Source: Thermodesulfobacteriota bacterium
Lineage (GTDB): Bacteria; Desulfobacterota; WTBG01; JAGOGO01
Length of the DNA stretch: 32,000 nucleotides
Reading direction: 5' to 3'
Assembly: GCA_026625185.1 (NCBI GenBank)
Contig: CP113000.1
Span: 885,622-917,621 of the forward strand
This document shows, piece by piece, positions 2,991 through 20,471 of this stretch. Each line of letters starts with the position of its first letter. The stretch's first letter is position 1. The notes below the pieces were generated by a model, which worked only from the letters and a program-made list of their open reading frames with translations, was not told the origin of the DNA and did no database searches. Both the position numbers and the translations under genes were made by a program.

Positions 2991-3121
2991 ATTTGCACCG
3001 AGTGCTGATATCGCCCTAAAAATAAGAGCATATCAGCATTACGTGACAATGTGCATGAGTTTGTTAACCATAGGGATCAAAAAGCCCCCCTTTTTTTTCA
3101 TGGTAAGATGCGGAATAATAA

Positions 3122-3239
3122 CAAGTTGCATTCAAAAGTAGATCGAGGCGGCGACGAGGAATCGACGCAGGCGTATATTTTTGTACGTCGAGGAGTATGA
3201 CGAGGAGCCAACAAAGATATACAAATGAAGGCAACTTGG
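3122..3239 (+). repeat. 118-nt structured repeat, copy 1 (5' leader of the GT4 gene)
   Basis: Differs at 4 of 118 positions from 7584-7701, in the same orientation. The ends caagttgcattca / tgaaggcaacttg are inverted complements. The interior is GA-rich with four CGAGG/ACGAGGA units and a gcgta..tacgt hairpin. Confidence 0.85.
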
Positions 3240-3262
3240 TATAAGGTGAAAGGTAGGAATCG

Positions 3263-5732: not shown

Positions 5733-5763
5733 GGGATAATGTATTTGCCCTCCAAAAAAACAT

Positions 5764-6558
5764 ATGGTGACCATTGTAATCCCTCACTATCAGACCCTCG
5801 AGATTATAAGATTATGCCTGAGGTCCATTCGAAAGTTTACCCCCCAACCTTATAAAGTAATCGTTGTTGATAATGATTCTCAGGATGAATCTCTTGAATA
5901 TTTGAAATCCGTTAAATGGCTACACCTTATTCAAAGAAAAGAGGTGGCGAAAAGGGGGTCCTGGGCTCATGGTTCAGCATTGGATATTGGACTCACGAAT
6001 ACCCAGACAGAATTTTTTCTTGCTCTCCACTCCGATGTAATGATTAAGGACTCCTCCTGGCTTAATAAGCTGCTTGCCCCTCTTCAGCAAAATCCTGCTT
6101 TATTTTGTGTGGGAACGGGAAAGTTAGAGGATGTTCCCTTGGCCTATCGAGTATTTAAAAAAATGGGGGACGTAAAAGGACTCCTTCGTTTTTTGAAGAC
6201 CGACCTTCTTCGCCACCCTGACCGGATTCTCCCCGAGTATATTCGAACCACCTGTGCCGTCTATCGAACTGAAATCTTAAAAAAAGAAAGGTTATCTTTC
6301 CTTCCTCGCGAGGAGCAGGGAATGACCTCCGGGCAAGCTCTCTATTATGAACTGGTTAAAAGAGGATACCAAACCCTTTACCTTCCTCCAGGAGAATTAA
6401 AAAAAATGATTGACCACCTATGCCACGGCACCATGATTTTAAACCCTGAGCTTGGGGCACGAAAACGAACAATATCAAAAGGCATCCGAAGGATCAAAAG
6501 AGAACTGAGCGAAGGATGGATAAAAAGTCTTTTAAAAGATTCTACCTTGGATCAGTAA
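5764..6558 (+). CDS. Glycosyltransferase family 2
   Basis: N-terminus VTIVIPHYQTLEIIRLCLRSI...VIVVDNDSQDES is the classic GT2 (GT-A) signature. Confidence 0.8.
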   Translation: MVTIVIPHYQTLEIIRLCLRSIRKFTPQPYKVIVVDNDSQDESLEYLKSVKWLHLIQRKEVAKRGSWAHGSALDIGLTNTQTEFFLALHSDVMIKDSSWLNKLLAPLQQNPALFCVGTGKLEDVPLAYRVFKKMGDVKGLLRFLKTDLLRHPDRILPEYIRTTCAVYRTEILKKERLSFLPREEQGMTSGQALYYELVKRGYQTLYLPPGELKKMIDHLCHGTMILNPELGARKRTISKGIRRIKRELSEGWIKSLLKDSTLDQ

Positions 6559-6580
6559 ACTCCGTAAGAAGGCTTTTTCA

Positions 6581-6609
6581 CCCTGTTAGCCATTTGATAT
6601 CTAAACGGG
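6581..6609 (+). repeat. REP-like hairpin element, family 2
   Basis: Reads ccctgttagccatttgatatctaaacggg, with the same stem/loop layout as 4501-4528 and 28960-28988. Confidence 0.55.
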
Positions 6610-6706
6610 TTTCTAACTGAGTAAAAACGTGGCAATGAAGAAGTAAGCTGCAAAAAAAGTTTTACAAAAATCAAAAAACCAACTCATATAAGACTCAACT
6701 ACCACT

Positions 6707-7564
6707 ATGAAATCTTTGCCTTTACCAAGCAATTTAGTCTTCCGCAACCATATGGTTATTAACCGAGAGTTCGAACCCTTGTTAAAAGAAAACGGTTTAG
6801 ATGATTTTGATGCAATGATGAAATTCGATAAAGGGGAAGTAGTTAAACAAAAAAGCAAATACCGCTCTACCATTCATTTTTATCTTACAGAAAAAGAACG
6901 CAGGGTTTCCGTTTATCTTAAGCGTTACCGCTTTTCTTTGATATCCGAGTTTGTGAAAAATTGCTTCTTTTTTTTTCGAACCTATTCGGCTATTTATGAA
7001 TGGAGATGCATCCTTAAATTTAAGGCATCCAATCTCCCTACCATGACCCCTATTGCCGTGGGAATGCGACGGCGAATTCCTTTTTGGAATGAATCCTTCC
7101 TTTTAACCCAAGGAATTACACCTACAAAAACCCTCGAACAAGAATTGGAAAATTATCCCCCTCCCCTGGATAGTATTCGGGTACAACAAAAAAGGGTCTT
7201 GATTGCTAAACTGGCAGCGCTTACCCAGAGAATGCATGGGGAGGGCTTTAAACATCAAGATTTCTACCTATGCCATATCTTGGTAAACTCAAGTGTTCCA
7301 GATGATCCTCTCCTTTATGTTGCCGATCTCCACCGGGTGAGGAGAAAGAAAAAAAATAACAAAAGCTGGCAAATCAAAGACCTGGCCGCGCTTAATTATT
7401 CTGCTTCCCAGAAATTTATAAGCCGAACCGACCGGCTCCGATTTATGAAACACTATGACCCGATTTTAGCCAATGACCTTCTCTTCCTTAAAAAGATAGT
7501 GAAAAAGACCGCGCAAATTCAAAGCCATGAAGAAAAAAAAGATAAAAACTCACATCGGGCGTGA
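6707..7564 (+). CDS. Lipopolysaccharide kinase (Kdo/WaaP) family protein
   Basis: Motifs HQDFYLCHILV and YVADLHRV match the Kdo/WaaP kinase catalytic-loop pattern. It sits among glycosyltransferases. TGA stop at 7562. Confidence 0.75.
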   Translation: MKSLPLPSNLVFRNHMVINREFEPLLKENGLDDFDAMMKFDKGEVVKQKSKYRSTIHFYLTEKERRVSVYLKRYRFSLISEFVKNCFFFFRTYSAIYEWRCILKFKASNLPTMTPIAVGMRRRIPFWNESFLLTQGITPTKTLEQELENYPPPLDSIRVQQKRVLIAKLAALTQRMHGEGFKHQDFYLCHILVNSSVPDDPLLYVADLHRVRRKKKNNKSWQIKDLAALNYSASQKFISRTDRLRFMKHYDPILANDLLFLKKIVKKTAQIQSHEEKKDKNSHRA

Positions 7565-7583
7565 TGCGAGCTTAGACTCATAC

Positions 7584-7701
7584 CAAGTTGCATTCAAAAG
7601 TAGATCGAGGCGGCGACGAGGAATCGACGCAGGCGTACATTTTAGTACGTCGAGAAGTATGACGAGGAGCCAACAAAGATATACAAATGAAGGCGACTTG
7701 G
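7584..7701 (+). repeat. 118-nt structured repeat, copy 2 (overlaps SD and probable start of larE)
   Basis: See copy 1. The 3' arm tgaaggcgacttgg contains GAAGG (7689-7693) and TTG (7698-7700). Confidence 0.85.
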
Positions 7702-8555
7702 CATCAAAAGCTAATTCCCTGCGAAAAATCCTTCGGGAGATGGGACGAATACTGCTTGCTTTTTCAGGGGGAGTGGATAGCGCTTTTCTCCTTAAAATCG
7801 CGTATGAAGAATTGGTTGAGAATGTTCTCGCAGTTACCGCTGTTTCTCCAATTCACCCAACGGAAGACTATGAAAGCGCTTGCCGGATTGCGCGTTCTTT
7901 CAAAATAAAGCACATGGTGATCGAAACCAATGAACTAAAAAACCCCAACTTCTGGAGCAACCCTCCTGACCGATGTTATTTTTGTAAAAAGGAACTTTTT
8001 CAGACATTACAAGCTATCGCTCGCCAAAAAAACATCGCTTTTGTGATTGATGCCAGCACCATTGATGATTTATCAGACTTTCGGCCGGGAAGAACCGCGG
8101 CGCAAGAAGAAGGCATAAGAAGTCCGCTTATAGAAGCGAGGTTTACCAAAAAAGAAATTCGGACCCTCTCCCAAGAAATGGGATTGCCGACCTGGAATAA
8201 ACCCTCCATGGCGTGCCTGGCATCAAGGTTCCCGTACGGCGAGTTCATTAGTCTTGAGAAGATAAACCGCGTGGCTCGCGCGGAGAATTTTCTTCGGGAC
8301 TTCGGCTTCAGCCAGGTCCGGGTAAGAAGTCATGATAAACTTGCCCGCATTGAAGTTGATGCTGAGGACATTCAAAAACTTACTAATCCTGAACTTCGTG
8401 AAAAAATTATTAACGAGCTAAAGCATCTGGGCTTTATTTATGTCACCATTGACCTTGAAGGTTATAGGACCGGAAGTCAAAATGAAGTTTTGACGGTTTC
8501 GGGGGACGCAAAGAGCAAAGAGCCTGGAGCAGGGGGCGAGGATTATATTTCGTGA
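7698..8555 (+). CDS. larE: LarE-like PP-loop ATP-dependent sulfur transferase (ATP-utilising enzyme of the PP-loop superfamily)
   Basis: PP-loop AFSGGVDSAF. CLASRFPYGE matches the LarE Cys-containing SRFPYG motif. The C-terminal FIYVTIDLEGYRTGS is typical. The tracked ORF start at 7527 reads through the repeat. TTG 7698 gives a 20-residue lead-in to the PP-loop, as in characterised LarE. Confidence 0.75.
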   Translation: MASKANSLRKILREMGRILLAFSGGVDSAFLLKIAYEELVENVLAVTAVSPIHPTEDYESACRIARSFKIKHMVIETNELKNPNFWSNPPDRCYFCKKELFQTLQAIARQKNIAFVIDASTIDDLSDFRPGRTAAQEEGIRSPLIEARFTKKEIRTLSQEMGLPTWNKPSMACLASRFPYGEFISLEKINRVARAENFLRDFGFSQVRVRSHDKLARIEVDAEDIQKLTNPELREKIINELKHLGFIYVTIDLEGYRTGSQNEVLTVSGDAKSKEPGAGGEDYIS

Positions 8556-8628
8556 AACGTGAGCACGTAATGCGTGAAGTGTTTTAACACCTTACGCTTT
8601 ACGATTTTCATTTCACGTTTTGTTTTTT
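8554..8628 (+). terminator. Long imperfect hairpin plus T-tract after larE (probable intrinsic terminator)
   Basis: Arms gaaacgtgagcacgtaatgcgtgaagtgtt / aacaccttacgctttacgattttcatttcacgtttt, followed by ttttgtttttt. Confidence 0.45.
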
Positions 8629-8629
8629 C

Positions 8630-8790
8630 TTGACATTTTCATTGGTTAGTTTTACAAAACACTAAATATCAACCCCAAAAAAGAATAGGGACGGAAAGGA
8701 ACCGGGAGTCTTTTATGGGAAGAATTTTTAAGACTGATGAGGAATAAAATAAGGCCGAATCGCCGGACATAAAGGTGATAGGCCTTTTTG
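8630..8790 (+). ncRNA. ORF-less promoter-leader-terminator module (candidate sRNA or decayed higA cassette), paralogue of 19025-19191
   Basis: TTGACA (8630-8635) - 17 nt - TACAAA, then an AACCCCAAAAAAG box. Terminator aaggcc..atcgcc..ggtgat..ggccttttt at 8751-8790 is about 82% identical to 19149-19190. No ORF longer than 10 codons. Confidence 0.3.
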
Positions 8791-8817
8791 GTTTCGGGAC
8801 TCAGCTTAGTTGGTGGC

Positions 8818-8992
8818 TTCGAACCGGCTTATACAGTCTGTATAAGACCGGAGCTATCAAAACAACAAAATGGTTTAACAATATAATATTATATGATATT
8901 TATAATTTATTAGAAAAAATCGGAAACGTCTTATACAGAAAGCAACAGTCTGTGTTTGCTGTATTATACAGACTGTATAATCAGTGTTAGAT
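8818..8992 (+). mobile_element. attC-like site (long, 175 bp) preceding the first cassette
   Basis: R''-like TTCGAAC (8818-8824) and consensus R' GTTAGAT (8986-8992). A 17-nt arm ttatacagtctgtataa (8829-8845) is the exact complement of ttatacagactgtataa (8964-8980). Confidence 0.35.
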
Positions 8993-9008
8993 TAAGGAAG
9001 TTAGCTAA

Positions 9009-9593
9009 ATGAATATACGAAGTCTACAATACGGAATAACAATATGCGCTCTACTGGTTGCACTTGCGCATATCATATGGCCAAGTCTTACTATTGATGC
9101 CATCACTGTTACTCTAATTTTCATTGCGTTAGTTCCGTGGTTAGCGCCCCTGTTCAAATCACTCGAACTCCCTGGTCGATTGAAAATTGAATTCCAGGAC
9201 TTTGAGCGTGCGCGGACAAAGGCTGATAAAGCAGGGTTGTTAAGTGAGTTTCCACGAATTGAATCCGAAAGACAATACTCATTCCAACTCGTTGCACAAG
9301 AAGACCCGAAACTAGCGTTGGCGGGGCTTCGTATTGAGATTGAAAAACGATTAACCGAAATAGCTGAATCGAATAACATAAACCCGGAAAAGGCAGGCAT
9401 AGGCCGTTTGTTAAGGATCTTAGGAGAAAGACAATTGCTATCTCAAGAGCAACGCTCCGCATTAGCAGACATGGTAGGTTTACTCAATTCAGCGGTTCAT
9501 GGGGGAGAAATAGATAATCGGGCTGCTGAATGGGCATTAGATGTTGGTCCAAGGCTAGTCAGTGCATTAGAGGCCAAAGTAAATAAAATCTAA
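9009..9593 (+). CDS. Hypothetical membrane protein (two N-terminal TM helices plus helical C-terminal domain), cassette-borne
   Basis: ATG 9009 with aaggaag upstream. Hydrophobic stretches ITICALLVALAHIIW and ITVTLIFIALVPWLAPLF. The stop TAA lies inside the attC R'' box. No family recognised with confidence. Confidence 0.6.
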   Translation: MNIRSLQYGITICALLVALAHIIWPSLTIDAITVTLIFIALVPWLAPLFKSLELPGRLKIEFQDFERARTKADKAGLLSEFPRIESERQYSFQLVAQEDPKLALAGLRIEIEKRLTEIAESNNINPEKAGIGRLLRILGERQLLSQEQRSALADMVGLLNSAVHGGEIDNRAAEWALDVGPRLVSALEAKVNKI

Positions 9594-9644
9594 CCAACCA
9601 ATCCACCGGACGGCTTTCAGCCGCCGGTGATCGGTACGTTAGGC
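9588..9644 (+). mobile_element. attC recombination site (57 bp)
   Basis: R'' ATCTAAC (fits RYYYAAC) and R' GTTAGGC (fits GTTRRRY). Arms CAACCAATCCACCGGACGGC / GCCGCCGGTGATCGGTAC pair except for two extra bases (C, A) on the R''-L'' arm. Central loop is tttca. Confidence 0.6.
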
Positions 9645-9694
9645 TGCTGGTTTGATGACATTGATTGCTTGATATAATTGAGGAGAACTATGGC

Positions 9695-11116
9695 ATGAAT
9701 GAACTTCTGTTTGATCCCGCAACGCACCGCAAAGCAGGTCGTCTTCTGGGAGAACTCCTGGCGAACTATGAAATTGATCTCTTGAATCAACCTGTGTTAC
9801 CACAAATCAATCGAGACGCCATGCGAGCGATCCTTACTGAACCCCTCCCAGAAGAGGGAAAACCGCTTGAGGAACTGTTTCAAGAATTCCGAGATGTTGT
9901 TGTGCCAAATTCTACTCACGTGGCGCATCCGCGTTTTCTCCCTTACGTGCTTCCCTCACCAAATGGCATCTCAGCGTTTGCCGATGCCCTGGCAAGTACC
10001 CTCAATCAGAACTGTAATCTCTGGACGCTGTCACCTGCGGCAAATGCCATTGAACAACGCGTCATTTCCTGGTTTAACGAATTATTCTCGTTTCCCAAAG
10101 GCAGCGGCGGCATCATTACAAGCGGTGGCTCAATGGCTAACCTGACGGCTCTTGCGGTAGCTCGCGATACGTATATCGGGAATACAGCGAGAACGGAAGG
10201 GGTTCAGGGGAGGACATCACCGCTGATACTCTATGTTTCAGAAGAGGTGCATAATAGTGTTGACAAAGCTGCCGTGATCCTTGGACTTGGGCTGAATAAT
10301 GTTCGTCACATCCCGTGTGACTCGCAGTTTAGGATGTGTATGGACCTCCTTAAAGATGCCATATTCCGAGATCGCCGTGAGGGCTTGAGCCCGTTCTGTG
10401 TGGTTGGCTCAGCCGGAACAGTCACGACAGGGGCGATTGATCCGCTTGATACTCTGGCAGATTTTTGTGGAGAGGAACGCTTGTGGCTTCACATTGATGG
10501 GGCCTATGGCGCTCTAGCCATTCTCAGCGAAAGAATGCAGGCACAGTTATTGCCTGCAGGCCGAGCGCATTCGCTGTCACTCGACCCTCACAAATTACTC
10601 TTCAACCCTCTGGAGGCCGGATGTGTGCTTGTACGAAATGCTGAAGACATGCGGTCAACGTATAGTTTCATTCCAAGCTATCTTTCGATGGTGTCTGACA
10701 GCGACTTTCTGAACTATGCGGAATATGGCCCGCAACTTTCACGGAGTTTTAAGGCCCTGAAGGTGTGGTGGTCATTACGAGCCTACGGACGAAAAGCGTA
10801 TGCGAGGGCGATAGAGAATCTATTTGACCTTGCCTCATATATGGGTGAACGGATTCAAGCCGAAGCAGAGTTGGAACTGGTGGCACCAGTCACGTTGAAT
10901 GCGGTGTGTGTACGATGTCGCAATCTCACTGACTCCCAGAATGAGAGTGTGCTTGCACGCCTGCTATCCGAAGGGATAGCGTTCCTTGGCAGGGCACAGG
11001 TGAAGGGGAAGTTCTGTCTCCGAGCCTGTTTCATGAATTTACGAACAACGCGTGAGGATGTGGATCATATCCTTGAGGAGATGATCCGTTTCGGAGAAGA
11101 GGAACTTAGAAATTGA
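9695..11116 (+). CDS. Group II PLP-dependent amino-acid decarboxylase (aromatic-L-amino-acid / tyrosine decarboxylase-like), cassette-borne
   Basis: SD gaggag at 9680-9685, 9 nt before ATG 9695. Motifs SGGSMANLTALAVAR and SLDPHKLL (PLP lysine) are typical of the DDC/GAD/HDC family. Confidence 0.85.
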   Translation: MNELLFDPATHRKAGRLLGELLANYEIDLLNQPVLPQINRDAMRAILTEPLPEEGKPLEELFQEFRDVVVPNSTHVAHPRFLPYVLPSPNGISAFADALASTLNQNCNLWTLSPAANAIEQRVISWFNELFSFPKGSGGIITSGGSMANLTALAVARDTYIGNTARTEGVQGRTSPLILYVSEEVHNSVDKAAVILGLGLNNVRHIPCDSQFRMCMDLLKDAIFRDRREGLSPFCVVGSAGTVTTGAIDPLDTLADFCGEERLWLHIDGAYGALAILSERMQAQLLPAGRAHSLSLDPHKLLFNPLEAGCVLVRNAEDMRSTYSFIPSYLSMVSDSDFLNYAEYGPQLSRSFKALKVWWSLRAYGRKAYARAIENLFDLASYMGERIQAEAELELVAPVTLNAVCVRCRNLTDSQNESVLARLLSEGIAFLGRAQVKGKFCLRACFMNLRTTREDVDHILEEMIRFGEEELRN

Positions 11117-11154
11117 ACAGTAGGTTGGATAAGATACTGTAAATAAATTGTTTC

Positions 11155-11293
11155 GCCTAACAAATGCGTGGAAGTGACTTTGGGGGCGCGCGCCAGTTTT
11201 AACTTACGTGCTTTCGGTAACGTTCAGTGGTGGTGTCAGCGTCGTTGCCCGTTGTCAGAGCGTCCCCAAAGCCCCTCACGCCGGTCGTTGGCC
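11155..11293 (+). mobile_element. attC-like site (139 bp)
   Basis: R'' GCCTAAC (fits RYYYAAC) and R'-like GTTGGCC (one mismatch). Arm gcctaacaaatgcgtggaagtgactttgggggcgc is an imperfect complement of gcgtccccaaagcccctcacgccggtcgttggcc. Confidence 0.5.
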
Positions 11294-11305
11294 CAAATAA
11301 TATAA

Positions 11306-11926
11306 ATGAATAATATATACCCTGACATCGAGTGGTATATCGGCATCAGTTGTGAAAAACAACTATCTCCTCACTGTCCCTTTGCGAACGTTCACAGATG
11401 CCCTCGTTATTAACAATCTCTCGCGTTGCTGGGCGTAAAAGGTCAAATGACTGAAATACCTAAAGAAGAAGATACGGCACTTCTCAACAAATGGCAGTCT
11501 ACAGACGTATGGCCGATAGTCAGAGAGCATGCGACAGCGATTAGCGGGAGTAATTGGAAAAGTACTCATTATACGAATTTTTGTCCTGAAATAAGCTACG
11601 ACAAATTTGGTTTATTCGCATCAATGCTTTGCACTTACATCGATGAAATTGATAAAGAGGCAGCAGAGAAATTACTGATTGAAAACGGACGGTCGCAGGC
11701 AAAAGACTGGCGATGGAATTGGGCATATGTCGTACCTCTACATTATTCGGAGTGCCCGATATATTCTCAACTGCCAGTTCAGTTCTCTGTTGCTACTCCT
11801 CCTCAGAATCATAAAGAGGAAATATTATCTGTCAAGCCTGGCATTTTCGGCGTATCAATTGATTTGCGTAGAAACAGCCGGGACGCCGCACAAATCACCC
11901 TTCAGCATCTATACATGACGAACTAA
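11306..11926 (+). pseudogene. Hypothetical Cys-rich protein gene interrupted by an in-frame TAA (11411-11413), cassette-borne
   Basis: ATG 11306 gives MNNIYPDIEWYIGISCEKQLSPHCPFANVHRCPRY, then TAA. The same frame continues into tracked ORF 11426..11926 (QSLALLGVKGQMTEIP...). Confidence 0.45.
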
Positions 11927-12054
11927 TTATTTGCGCATACGTTACAACACCCTTCGACAAGCTCAGGGTGACCGGTCGTGGTGAGCCTGTCGAACCATGT
12001 GCAGGGTATTCTCTTGGCAATGATAGCCATGCGCAATTGTTTATAACGTTGTGT
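11917..12054 (+). mobile_element. Degenerate attC-like site closing the cassette patch
   Basis: Outer pairs GACGAAC / GTTGTGT (5 of 7 complementary), ttgcgcat / atgcgcaa, and ttcgacaagctca / tgagcctgtcgaa. Both core boxes deviate from consensus. Confidence 0.3.
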
Positions 12055-12080
12055 ATAATAAAATTAAAAGATTATGAGAT

Positions 12081-12110
12081 CCTGAATCAAGTTCAGGAAT
12101 TATTTTTTTT
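12081..12110 (+). terminator. Intrinsic terminator candidate
   Basis: cctgaa-tcaag-ttcagg hairpin followed by aattatttttttt. Confidence 0.45.
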
Positions 12111-12127
12111 ATTACGTGGGTTTTATA

Positions 12128-13084
12128 ATGAAAGCACTAATCTTTGATGGAAAAATCCGCATAGAAAAAAACCTCCCAATTCCGAGAAGAAAGCCTTTTG
12201 AGGCGCTCATCCGGGTCTTAAAAGCAGGAATTTGTCAGACTGACTTGGAGATCATAAAAGGCTATCTTCATTTTCAAGGAATATTAGGGCATGAATTTGT
12301 TGGCATCATTGAGGAGAGCCAAAATCAAGAACTTTTAGGAAAAAGAGTGGTTGGGGAAATCAACCTTGCCTGTGGAAAGTGTATATATTGTCAAAAAAAA
12401 ATGCCTTCCCACTGTAACGCCCGTTCAGTCTTAGGAATAAAAGATAAAAATGGTTGTTTTGCTGAATATATCACCCTGCCGATAGAAAATATTCACGTAA
12501 TTCCTGATTCAATTTCTGACGATGAAGCAATCTTTGTAGAGCCTTTAGCTGCTGCCCTGCAAATCCTCACCCAAGTCCATATCCGACCTCAAGATGATGT
12601 CGTAATTTTAGGAGATGGCAGGTTAGGACAATTATGCGCCCAGGTCATGAGTCTAACCGGAGCCCAAGTACTGACAGTAGGAAACCATCTGAAAAAATTA
12701 AAGATCCTCAAAAAAAGGGGGATAAAAACTTGTAGATTTGATGAAATTTCCCAAAAAAAATCCGATGTTGTAATAGAATGCACTGGGTCTCCGGCTGGTT
12801 TCAACGCTGCCTTAAACTTGGTCCATCCGCGGGGGACCATTGTTTTAAAGAGCACCTACGAAGTTAAACCATCAATAGATCTGGCGCCGATAGTCATTGA
12901 TGAAATAACGATTATAGGGTCTCGCTGTGGTCCTTTTCCTCCCGCCATTCGTCTCTTAGAAAACAAAATCATTGATGTTCTCTCGCTTATCTCCCAAAGG
13001 TTTTCCCTCGATAACGCTCTTGTGGCTATCAAGGCGGCACACCAGAAAGAAAACCTCAAGATCATCTTAGACATAAGCAAGTAA
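12128..13084 (+). CDS. Zinc-dependent alcohol dehydrogenase (MDR) family protein
   Basis: ATG 12128 (MKALIFDG). Catalytic-zinc region CQTDLE...GHEFVG. Structural-zinc cluster CGKCIYCQKKMPSHC. Confidence 0.8.
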   Translation: MKALIFDGKIRIEKNLPIPRRKPFEALIRVLKAGICQTDLEIIKGYLHFQGILGHEFVGIIEESQNQELLGKRVVGEINLACGKCIYCQKKMPSHCNARSVLGIKDKNGCFAEYITLPIENIHVIPDSISDDEAIFVEPLAAALQILTQVHIRPQDDVVILGDGRLGQLCAQVMSLTGAQVLTVGNHLKKLKILKKRGIKTCRFDEISQKKSDVVIECTGSPAGFNAALNLVHPRGTIVLKSTYEVKPSIDLAPIVIDEITIIGSRCGPFPPAIRLLENKIIDVLSLISQRFSLDNALVAIKAAHQKENLKIILDISK

Positions 13085-20058: not shown

Positions 20059-20471
20059 GCATGTCACTAACTAACCATTCGCTCAAGACGACCGAATGGA
20101 CGTACAACGAATACCCACGCGTGTAAATGGGAAGCGCAAGATTGAAATTTATGAATTCGCGCGGCGGTAGTGGTAAATTAAAAGGAAACGTTTCGGCAGC
20201 AGATGAAAGGACGGGACGTTGTTGAGAATTAACTCTTCAGTAAGTTCGCCACACTCCATTCATCGCGTATAGTGGCGTATCGCAATCCCCTCTTGATAGG
20301 GGTGTCACGAAGTGACGGGGTGTGTTGAGGAGTGTTTGATTTCTTTTGTCACGATTATTAGTCAAGGCATAAATATGACCGTACTTAATGCCCCCTCATT
20401 TCCATCCTCTCCCCGGCGGAAAGGGGAAATCATTAGAATTTATCTCTACCTTTGCGATAGGACCTGAATAA

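Follow-up and report, generated by a model that had tools for sequence, protein, structure and literature searches.

Introduction

Integron cassettes move as circles, and the integrase IntI recombines the folded bottom strand of attC at G|TT with attI or with another attC (PMC2727003, PMC4889954). attC clusters that have no integron integrase (CALINs) have been defined as two or more attC sites that share a strand, are separated by less than 4 kb and have no integrase within 4 kb, pseudogenes being sought within 10 kb (Cury et al. 2016, PMC4889954). They are common, and the integron field has yet to settle how they originate and whether they stay active (PMC4889954). A described homologue of one of the sites reported here, attC_ereA2, combines a GAA loop with two extrahelical bases and recombines with attI1 at about 1e-2 (PMC2727003). 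Here, we describe a small cassette array downstream of larE in a stretch of 32,000 nucleotides (32 kb) from a Thermodesulfobacteriota bacterium (GCA_026625185.1, contig CP113000.1, positions 885,622 to 917,621), which is referred to as the window and to which all coordinates refer unless stated otherwise. The array consists of two intact cassettes and one decayed cassette, and positions 8790-12084 very probably represent a chromosomal integron cassette array without a nearby integrase gene, i.e., a CALIN. An earlier note on this DNA had proposed such an integrase-less, CALIN-like cluster, and this proposal stands on two attC sites, boundaries at G|TT, no intI in 32 kb and a region that is missing in two relatives. 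CALINs are a known type of element and the present one is an ordinary example; the only modestly unusual aspect is an attI-like junction that shows cassette turnover and has no integrase.

Results

Predicted recombination sites of cassettes 1 and 2

Three co-oriented open reading frames (ORFs), which the earlier note had reported, lie between larE and a dehydrogenase gene (Table 1). The claim of the note that an attC site follows each of them holds for ORF1 and ORF2 (sites 1 and 2) and fails for ORF3, the gene of the decayed cassette. To score the sites we used R1, a purpose-built attC covariance model trained on 19 bona fide sites, all from outside the window, comprising nine class 1 sites (qacF, aadB, VIM-2, arr-3, dfrA27, aadA2, dfrA1, aadA1, and ereA2) and ten sites from two metagenomic arrays (L037 and L043; L numbers denote fetched loci) that were reached via homologues of ORF1 and ORF3. 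The model spans 60 positions, with 15 pairs that make up the R box and the inner L stem, and was run on the window with filters off and on both strands, i.e., on 64 kb of sequence. Leaving two shifted sites out of a second MAFFT alignment gave a poorer result, and this alignment was discarded; the spacer classes of 5 and 6 nt could not be brought into register. Over 327 kb of other loci R1 recovered all training sites (29.9-62.6 bits) and two new ones, and there it gave no hit of 19 bits or more other than attC sites, if the opposite strand of a single true site is disregarded. Its top two hits in the window are exactly sites 1 and 2, the next best (12.1 bits, E 0.96) lying elsewhere. Not all of the proposed sites fall below threshold, an outcome that the earlier note had named as a refutation of its reading.

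Judged by its sequence and predicted fold, site 1 is a bona fide attC, homologous to the functionally tested attC_ereA2. Its boxes (R'' ATCTAAC, R' GTTAGGC, L'' AATCCACC, L' GGTGATC) fit RYYYAAC / GTTRRRY, and the stop codon of ORF1 falls within R''. The predicted fold of the bottom strand has an R box of 5 bp, spacers of 2 nt on both sides, a stem and a GAA loop, with a bulged G and, 6 nt further in, a bulged T, both on the R''-L'' arm (-18.2 kcal/mol, z = -5.7; 0 of 200 shuffles fold as well). The R'' and R' boxes, the two extrahelical bases and the stop codon within R'' had all been read in the same way in the earlier note. R1 gives the site 44.5 bits (E 1.2e-9), the top hit in the window, with a training set that includes two sites homologous to it. 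When the 3.6-kb region was compared by BLAST with 72,556 plasmids, the sole match was 52 nt of site 1, at 86.5% identity, in 112 plasmids; in the two plasmids inspected these 52 nt lie directly 3' of ereA2 inside class 1 integrons, the order on pKJK172 being intI1, ereA2, match. Moreover, a 33-nt core of site 1 is identical to that of the attC behind an unrelated LinB-like nucleotidyltransferase gene in the metagenomic array L037.

Site 2 was found by R1 at exactly the coordinates and with the boxes that had been proposed for it, as the second-best hit in the window (15.6 bits, E 0.1); IntegronFinder retains attC sites at E below 1. In its predicted fold the correct arm carries a TC bulge of 2 nt, and there are two 1x1 mismatches (z = -0.5). 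Site 2 is a predicted attC of divergent type, supported by the model score and the boundary tests described below, not by its fold.

Cassette boundaries

Cuts at G|TT give cassettes of 652, 1649, and 761 bp, in agreement with the sizes put forward earlier. In integron arrays each R' contributes its last six bases to the cassette that follows, and the start of a cassette is therefore expected to be complementary to the R'' of its own attC. This is what the two intact cassettes show: the start of cassette 1 (G|TTAGAT) and its own R'' (ATCTAAC) are complementary at 7/7 positions, as are the start of cassette 2 (G|TTAGGC) and GCCTAAC. The same comparison in control arrays gave 7/7 for three consecutive cassettes of L043 and 5/7 to 7/7 in L037.

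Homology to unrelated contigs opens at the same points. A homologue of cassette 1 in L037 is 86% identical and has the same start, GTTAGATT (G|TTAGAT), and its stop codon lies within the same R'', ATCTAAC. Cassette 2 is 87% identical at the nucleotide and 90% at the amino acid level to a locus of "Ca. Vecturithrix granuli" (L051, DF820467), a member of a different phylum, in an alignment that spans 9637-11123 and thus starts at R' of site 1 (G|TTAGGC). The homology between cassette 3 and L043 opens at 11285, which is R' of site 2. In the close homologues of ORF2 (L051-L054) the attC of ORF2 is not present, and homology stops at the stop codon. The decarboxylase copy of L051 starts at the crossover point and yet has no attC; it gives the impression of a transferred cassette that became fixed without the recombination site.

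All three ORFs have close homologues in very different lineages, which is consistent with their horizontal spread, and homologues of ORF1 and ORF3 occur in cassette arrays elsewhere. Neither ORF1 nor ORF3 has a match in Pfam, NCBIfam, PHROG or among PDB sequences, and the only PADLOC match is a marginal one of ORF1 to PD-T7-4 (E 0.0089, 13.5 bits). At two further loci, L041 (10001-11390; 70% identity) and L042 (10001-11448; 67% identity), the homologue of ORF1 is directly followed on its 3' side by a gene of ca. 260 amino acids without an assigned family, and in L042 no attC was seen at the homologue; here the two genes may form a conserved two-gene module, unlike the single-gene form of the cassette. 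The array that contains the homologue of ORF1 in L037 (3836-11549) comprises at least eight cassettes, and most of its attC sites are members of a single homogeneous family (AATACAGCCG...CGGCTGATT). The first junction of the array reads ...TATATTAATTG|TTCGGT, there is no integrase in the 4 kb upstream, and an IS3-family transposase lies at the end of the array.

The larE-dehydrogenase locus in relatives

Six relatives (L006 and L059-L063), with about 88-92% nucleotide identity in the flanking genes, were compared at this locus. In L006 and L061 the dehydrogenase gene follows larE within about 30 nt, and 8493-12084 is absent. L059, L060, and L062 share 8493-8789 with the window and then diverge into different cassettes. 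The contig of L063 ends within larE; it aligns only to 7123-8365 and is uninformative. The relatives do not carry the genes of the array as conserved neighbours, a possibility that the earlier note had raised against its own reading.

Positions 5750-8492 correspond to L006 7232-9967 and positions 12085-13084 to L006 9956-10958, with an overlap of 12 bp, and L061 has the same empty junction. A single AATGAAGTTTTG is present in L006 and L061 versus two imperfect copies in the window (8481-8492 and 12085-12096). An insertion is favoured by the LarE family model, whose end at residue 318 lies immediately ahead of the junction, and by the proteins of the empty loci, which end a few residues later. 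On the other side, three of the relatives keep the 20-amino-acid tail of LarE, and a deletion mediated by the 12-bp repeat is equally conceivable. The larE tail is common to L059 and L060 and is missing in L006 and L061.

The junction upstream of cassette 1

Beyond 8789, L059, L060, and L062 have small repeats, then a region resembling 8790-8986 and then a cassette. These regions contain GTCTTATAyAG / CTGTATAAGAC motifs and an AT-rich stretch and end in the junction ...TATAATcagt, followed by G|TT. In the window the TTATACAG / CTGTATAA motifs start at 8829, 8838, 8931, 8964, and 8973, and five of the six window copies of TTATACAG fall within 8829-8980, with 0.59 copies expected in the whole window. 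The first cassettes are different: G|TTAGCA opens a cassette with a 179-amino-acid ORF in L059, with an attC-like site behind it (20.1 bits with R1, E 0.005) and then an insertion sequence; in L060 G|TTCGGA opens a two-gene unit with a DUF6036/AbiEii-like nucleotidyltransferase, and in L062 G|TTCGGC precedes another ORF. The left flank is kept and the right flank variable exactly at G|TT in all four genomes, which argues for an attI-like junction at the position of the proposed site 0 (8818-8992). We consider 8790-8986 best described as a conserved attI-like junction, not as an attC.

The earlier note had listed site 0 as a fourth attC, upstream of the first cassette. The inverted repeat on which this was based is present, but the best R1 hit reaches 5.8 bits and does not span the site, the stem is a perfect one of 17 bp without bulges, and no R'' occurs in L062. 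A truncated tRNA as integration target at 8790-8830 was likewise rejected; neither in the window nor in the relatives does ARAGORN find a tRNA.

Between larE and the junction lies a unit (8631-8789) that is 77-89% identical in L059, L060, and L062, the homology to these relatives stopping at 8789. The pairing of its terminator stem is kept despite base changes, and it has no Rfam family. It is a candidate for an independent small-RNA gene. Its promoter-like element (8631-8660), with its own terminator downstream, is the sole strong one found; the promoter scan as such performed no better than on shuffles. In L060 the 3' end of the small RNA and its terminator occur twice (1265-1305 and 2252-2306 of that locus), as direct repeats that flank the attI-like region and the cassette, which hints at a duplication or integration event there. 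Another short repeat, CCCCTCTTGATAGGGGTGTCACGAAGTGACGGGGTGTGT, is found at 20284-20345 of the window, in an intergenic position, and at 3343-3384 of L059 and 5015-5076 of L062, where the attI-like region lies just downstream of it.

Cassette 3 and the right end of the array

For the third cassette we predict a truncated pseudogene (11306-11926), and it has no attC of its own. At the position of its in-frame TAA all homologues carry a tyrosine (in CPRYYQS, part of the motif CPxANVHRCPRYYQS), the C-terminus of ORF3 departs from the homologues from DLRK... onward, and nucleotide homology to L043 is confined to 11285-11868. Intact members of this widespread, uncharacterised family are Cys-rich and about 200 amino acids long.

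A degenerate attC (site 3, 11917-12054) had been proposed at the end of ORF3. An inverted repeat does exist there, but the best local R1 hit reaches 3.5 bits and does not span the site, and GACGAAC fits the GGCCAAC expected from the start of cassette 3 (G|TTGGCC) at only 5/7 positions; the homologue of cassette 3 in L043 has the expected R'' GGCCAAC. The palindrome TTCGACAAGCTCA...TGAGCCTGTCGAA at 11953-11994, in the 228 bp behind the end of the homology to L043, lies inside a 29-nt, 72% inverted repeat (11910-11938 / 12029-12057). Its arms recur, as the short palindromic repeat TTCGACARGCTCA / TGAGCYTGTCGAA, in two unrelated metagenomic genomes, at L053 7904-7931 and 12938-13065 and at L011 16592-16604. 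Given this recurrence the palindrome is a dispersed short repeat, which resembles a repetitive extragenic palindrome (REP) or a miniature inverted-repeat transposable element (MITE). A search of all fetched loci and the plasmids for homology to 8493-9008 and 11869-12096 matched only the short palindrome.

Gene content of the window

No integrase gene was found. A Pfam scan of all large ORFs of the window gave no match to an integrase or tyrosine recombinase of the PF00589 type, a six-frame tblastn search of the window with IntI1 had a best E value of 11, and tblastn detected no intI fragments in the window or in the loci of the relatives. The earlier statement that the window has no integrase-like ORF is thus borne out, as is the identification of the upstream gene as larE. 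An intI with the IntI-specific insertion adjoining an attI, as in a complete integron, is not found within the 32-kb window. Rfam searches (at the gathering threshold over the whole window and at an E-value threshold over 8300-12300) returned nothing relevant and no match to attC.

The patch had also been described as visibly GC-rich. This is correct for cassette 2 only, which has 50.3% GC versus 42.5 +/- 2.5% in windows of equal size elsewhere (maximum 47.3%); the contrast was overstated for the patch as a whole, which has 46.4% GC versus about 42% in its flanks.

The remainder of the window holds housekeeping genes, among them genes for glycosyltransferases, a Kdo kinase, CysK, a radical SAM enzyme, CdaA, enzymes of haem biosynthesis and sugar epimerases. 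A 125-nt repeat with terminal inverted repeats (CCAAGTTGC...GCAACTTGG) is present in two 95% identical copies, one (3118-3242) just upstream of a GT4 gene and the other (7580-7704) in the annotated 5' extension of larE. The latter copy is missing from L061 and L062, and the repeat therefore seems to behave like a mobile element of the MITE type. It also suggests that the true start of larE is near 7705.

Table 1. Coordinates of the array, its predicted recombination sites and the adjoining genes in the window.
Feature	Position	Strand	Remarks
larE	7527-8555	+	TIGR00268 match, 330 bits, residues 61-318 only
Left 12-bp imperfect direct repeat	8481-8492	+	AATGAAGTTTTG; end of homology to empty-site relatives
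larE C-terminal tail	8493-8555	+	20 codons, TVSGDAKSKEPGAGGEDYIS; beyond LarE family model
Candidate small-RNA gene	8631-8789	+	TTGACA-17-TACAAA, about 125 nt, hairpin and T-run
Putative attI-like region	8790-8986	+	Five motifs, AT-rich core, crossover G 8986
Cassette 1	8987-9638 (652 bp)	+	ORF1; own attC is site 1
ORF1	9009-9593	+	194 aa, hydrophobic N-terminus, no family assigned
Predicted attC of cassette 1 (site 1)	9588-9644 (57 bp)	+	attC_ereA2 family; R1 44.5 bits
Cassette 2	9639-11287 (1649 bp, 50.3% GC)	+	ORF2; own attC is site 2
ORF2	9695-11116	+	PLP-dependent group II decarboxylase; PF00282, E 3.7e-72
Predicted attC of cassette 2 (site 2)	11155-11293 (139 bp)	+	Divergent; GCCTAAC...GTTGGCC; non-canonical 2-nt bulge
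Cassette 3 remnant	11288-11868	+	Gene from ATG 11306; in-frame TAA 11411; 3' end and own attC lost
ORF3	11447-11926	+	No family assigned
Unrelated 3' filler	11869-12084	.	Holds proposed site 3 and palindrome
Terminator-like hairpin and T-run	12080-12108	+	Overlaps right 12-bp repeat copy AATCAAGTTCAG (12085-12096)
Zinc-dependent dehydrogenase	12128-13084	+	

Discussion

The two predicted attC sites lie on the same (+) strand, 1.5 kb apart, the second being a weak one, and there is no intI within the 32-kb window, in line with the definition of a CALIN. We envisage that each cassette was formerly a circle and that an IntI-type tyrosine recombinase inserted the cassettes at 8986|8987, via the folded bottom strand of attC at G|TT. 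Since no intI is nearby, this recombinase would have acted in trans, from another locus or from a transient mobile integron, or would have been lost. The different first cassettes next to the same junction in the relatives suggest that the junction was used repeatedly, and cassette 3 and the right end would have decayed later. Several points weigh against this interpretation. Activity in trans is an inference, as the searches of the window and of the loci of the relatives revealed no integrase; the 3.6-kb difference from L006 and L061 is compatible with both an insertion and a deletion; and the interpretation does not account for the right end of the array (11869-12096). Site 2, at 15.6 bits, scores far below every training attC (at least 28.9 bits), folds no better than shuffles and has bulges other than the canonical G and T, and R1 itself is a rough surrogate, with a shortened calibration, for the model of IntegronFinder (attc_4.cm). 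Finally, the reading of the junction as attI-like rests on four sequences, and TTATACAG is unlike known IntI binding sites.

An alternative is the dead relic of a complete sedentary chromosomal integron. In such a relic intI would have been deleted from its place beside the attI-like site, and the cassettes would be frozen and in decay, with no recombination today. We consider this unlikely, though by no means far-fetched: the truncated pseudogene in cassette 3, the weakness of site 2, the retained attI-like region and the interval between larE and the junction, which in the relatives is variable and littered with small repeats, all speak for decay. However, the tblastn searches revealed no fragment of intI in the window or at the loci of the relatives, the ORFs of cassettes 1 and 2 and site 1 are intact, and different first cassettes in genomes at about 90% identity need either turnover after their divergence or independent loss from a longer ancestral array. 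A further alternative is a one-off insertion of a multi-cassette circle by a passing integrase at a secondary site (GNT) at the 3' end of larE, without any attI. Insertion at secondary sites is a recognised origin of CALINs (PMC4889954), and the 3.6-kb difference is indeed flanked by a GTT-containing 12-bp imperfect repeat (AATGAAGTTTTG / AATCAAGTTCAG) just beyond the point where the LarE family model stops. Yet the first cassette boundary, at 8986, lies 494 bp inside the indel and not at its edge, the stretch from this edge to cassette 1 ends without a recognisable attC, 8493-8789 is shared with L059, L060, and L062, which have other cassettes, and the sequence just left of G|TT is alike in all four genomes, so that we regard such a one-off event as very improbable.

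If site 0 were the atypical attC of a conserved first cassette without an ORF, the later cassettes could have entered by recombination between attC sites. The 20-nt inverted repeat there, 95% complementary with its arms 112 nt apart, the R''-like TTCGAAC at 8819-8825, the consensus R' GTTAGAT at 8986-8992 and a similar inverted repeat in L062 are in keeping with this idea. It is nevertheless improbable: besides the low R1 score of a hit that fails to span the site, the stem is devoid of extrahelical bases, which recombination between attC sites needs (PMC2727003), an AAC-containing R'' is missing from the corresponding position of L062, and there is no upstream G|TT boundary complementary to TTCGAAC. 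That the genes are merely ordinary, vertically inherited ones next to chance palindromes or terminators, with no integron feature at all, would accord with the fold of site 2, which is no better than that of shuffles, and with the failure of sites 0 and 3 in the attC model. This can hardly be upheld in view of the homology of site 1 to attC_ereA2 (R1 E 1e-9), the two instances of 7/7 complementarity between R'' and cassette start, the breaks in homology exactly at G|TT and the absence of the region from L006 and L061.

Returning to the CALIN interpretation, the ca. 200 bp at 8790-8992, with their TTATACAG / CTGTATAA repeats, their AT-rich core and ...TATAATCAGT G|TT, might even be a novel attI platform that persists without a neighbouring integrase and is loaded repeatedly in trans by an IntI encoded elsewhere. 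This is a speculative proposal, which we put forward with low confidence. If true, related species would carry different cassettes at the same larE-dehydrogenase locus and some CALINs would be active satellite integrons rather than debris. Two empty genomes and four with a common junction and different first cassettes form a natural series at one chromosomal site, which makes the alternatives of a relic and a platform serviced in trans directly testable. The attC family of the clinical ereA2 cassette also circulates on unrelated cassettes in environmental, uncultured bacteria, and its spread bears on where the recombination sites of resistance cassettes come from.

Among described systems, attC_ereA2 (PMC2727003) agrees with site 1 at 45 of 52 aligned bases and has the same L boxes (AATCCACC / GGTGATC), a GAA loop as well, two extrahelical bases and the same length of 57 bp. 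Site 1 differs from it in R'' (GCATAAC in attC_ereA2, ATCTAAC in site 1), in one stem pair that is altered on both sides (a compensatory change from C-G to T-A) and in its location behind an unrelated gene in an environmental chromosome. As in the CALINs surveyed previously (PMC4889954), the array is small, its cassettes have unknown or non-resistance functions and there is no intI pseudogene nearby, which holds for 95% of CALINs; it departs from them in that one of its three cassettes has no attC and in that its first junction is conserved across relatives with different cassettes, something that the definition neither requires nor reports. Insertions at secondary (GNT) sites likewise place integrase-less cassettes in ordinary genes, and the indel described here is flanked by a GTT-containing repeat, but its cassette boundary lies off the edge of the indel and its junction is conserved in relatives with other cassettes. 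With sedentary chromosomal integrons, such as the superintegron of Vibrio cholerae, the locus has in common its chromosomal location, cassettes of unknown function, and a fixed first junction at a fixed locus where the cassette content varies between relatives, whereas it has no adjacent intI, only two or three cassettes, and attC sites that are heterogeneous (57 and 139 bp) instead of forming one homogeneous family.

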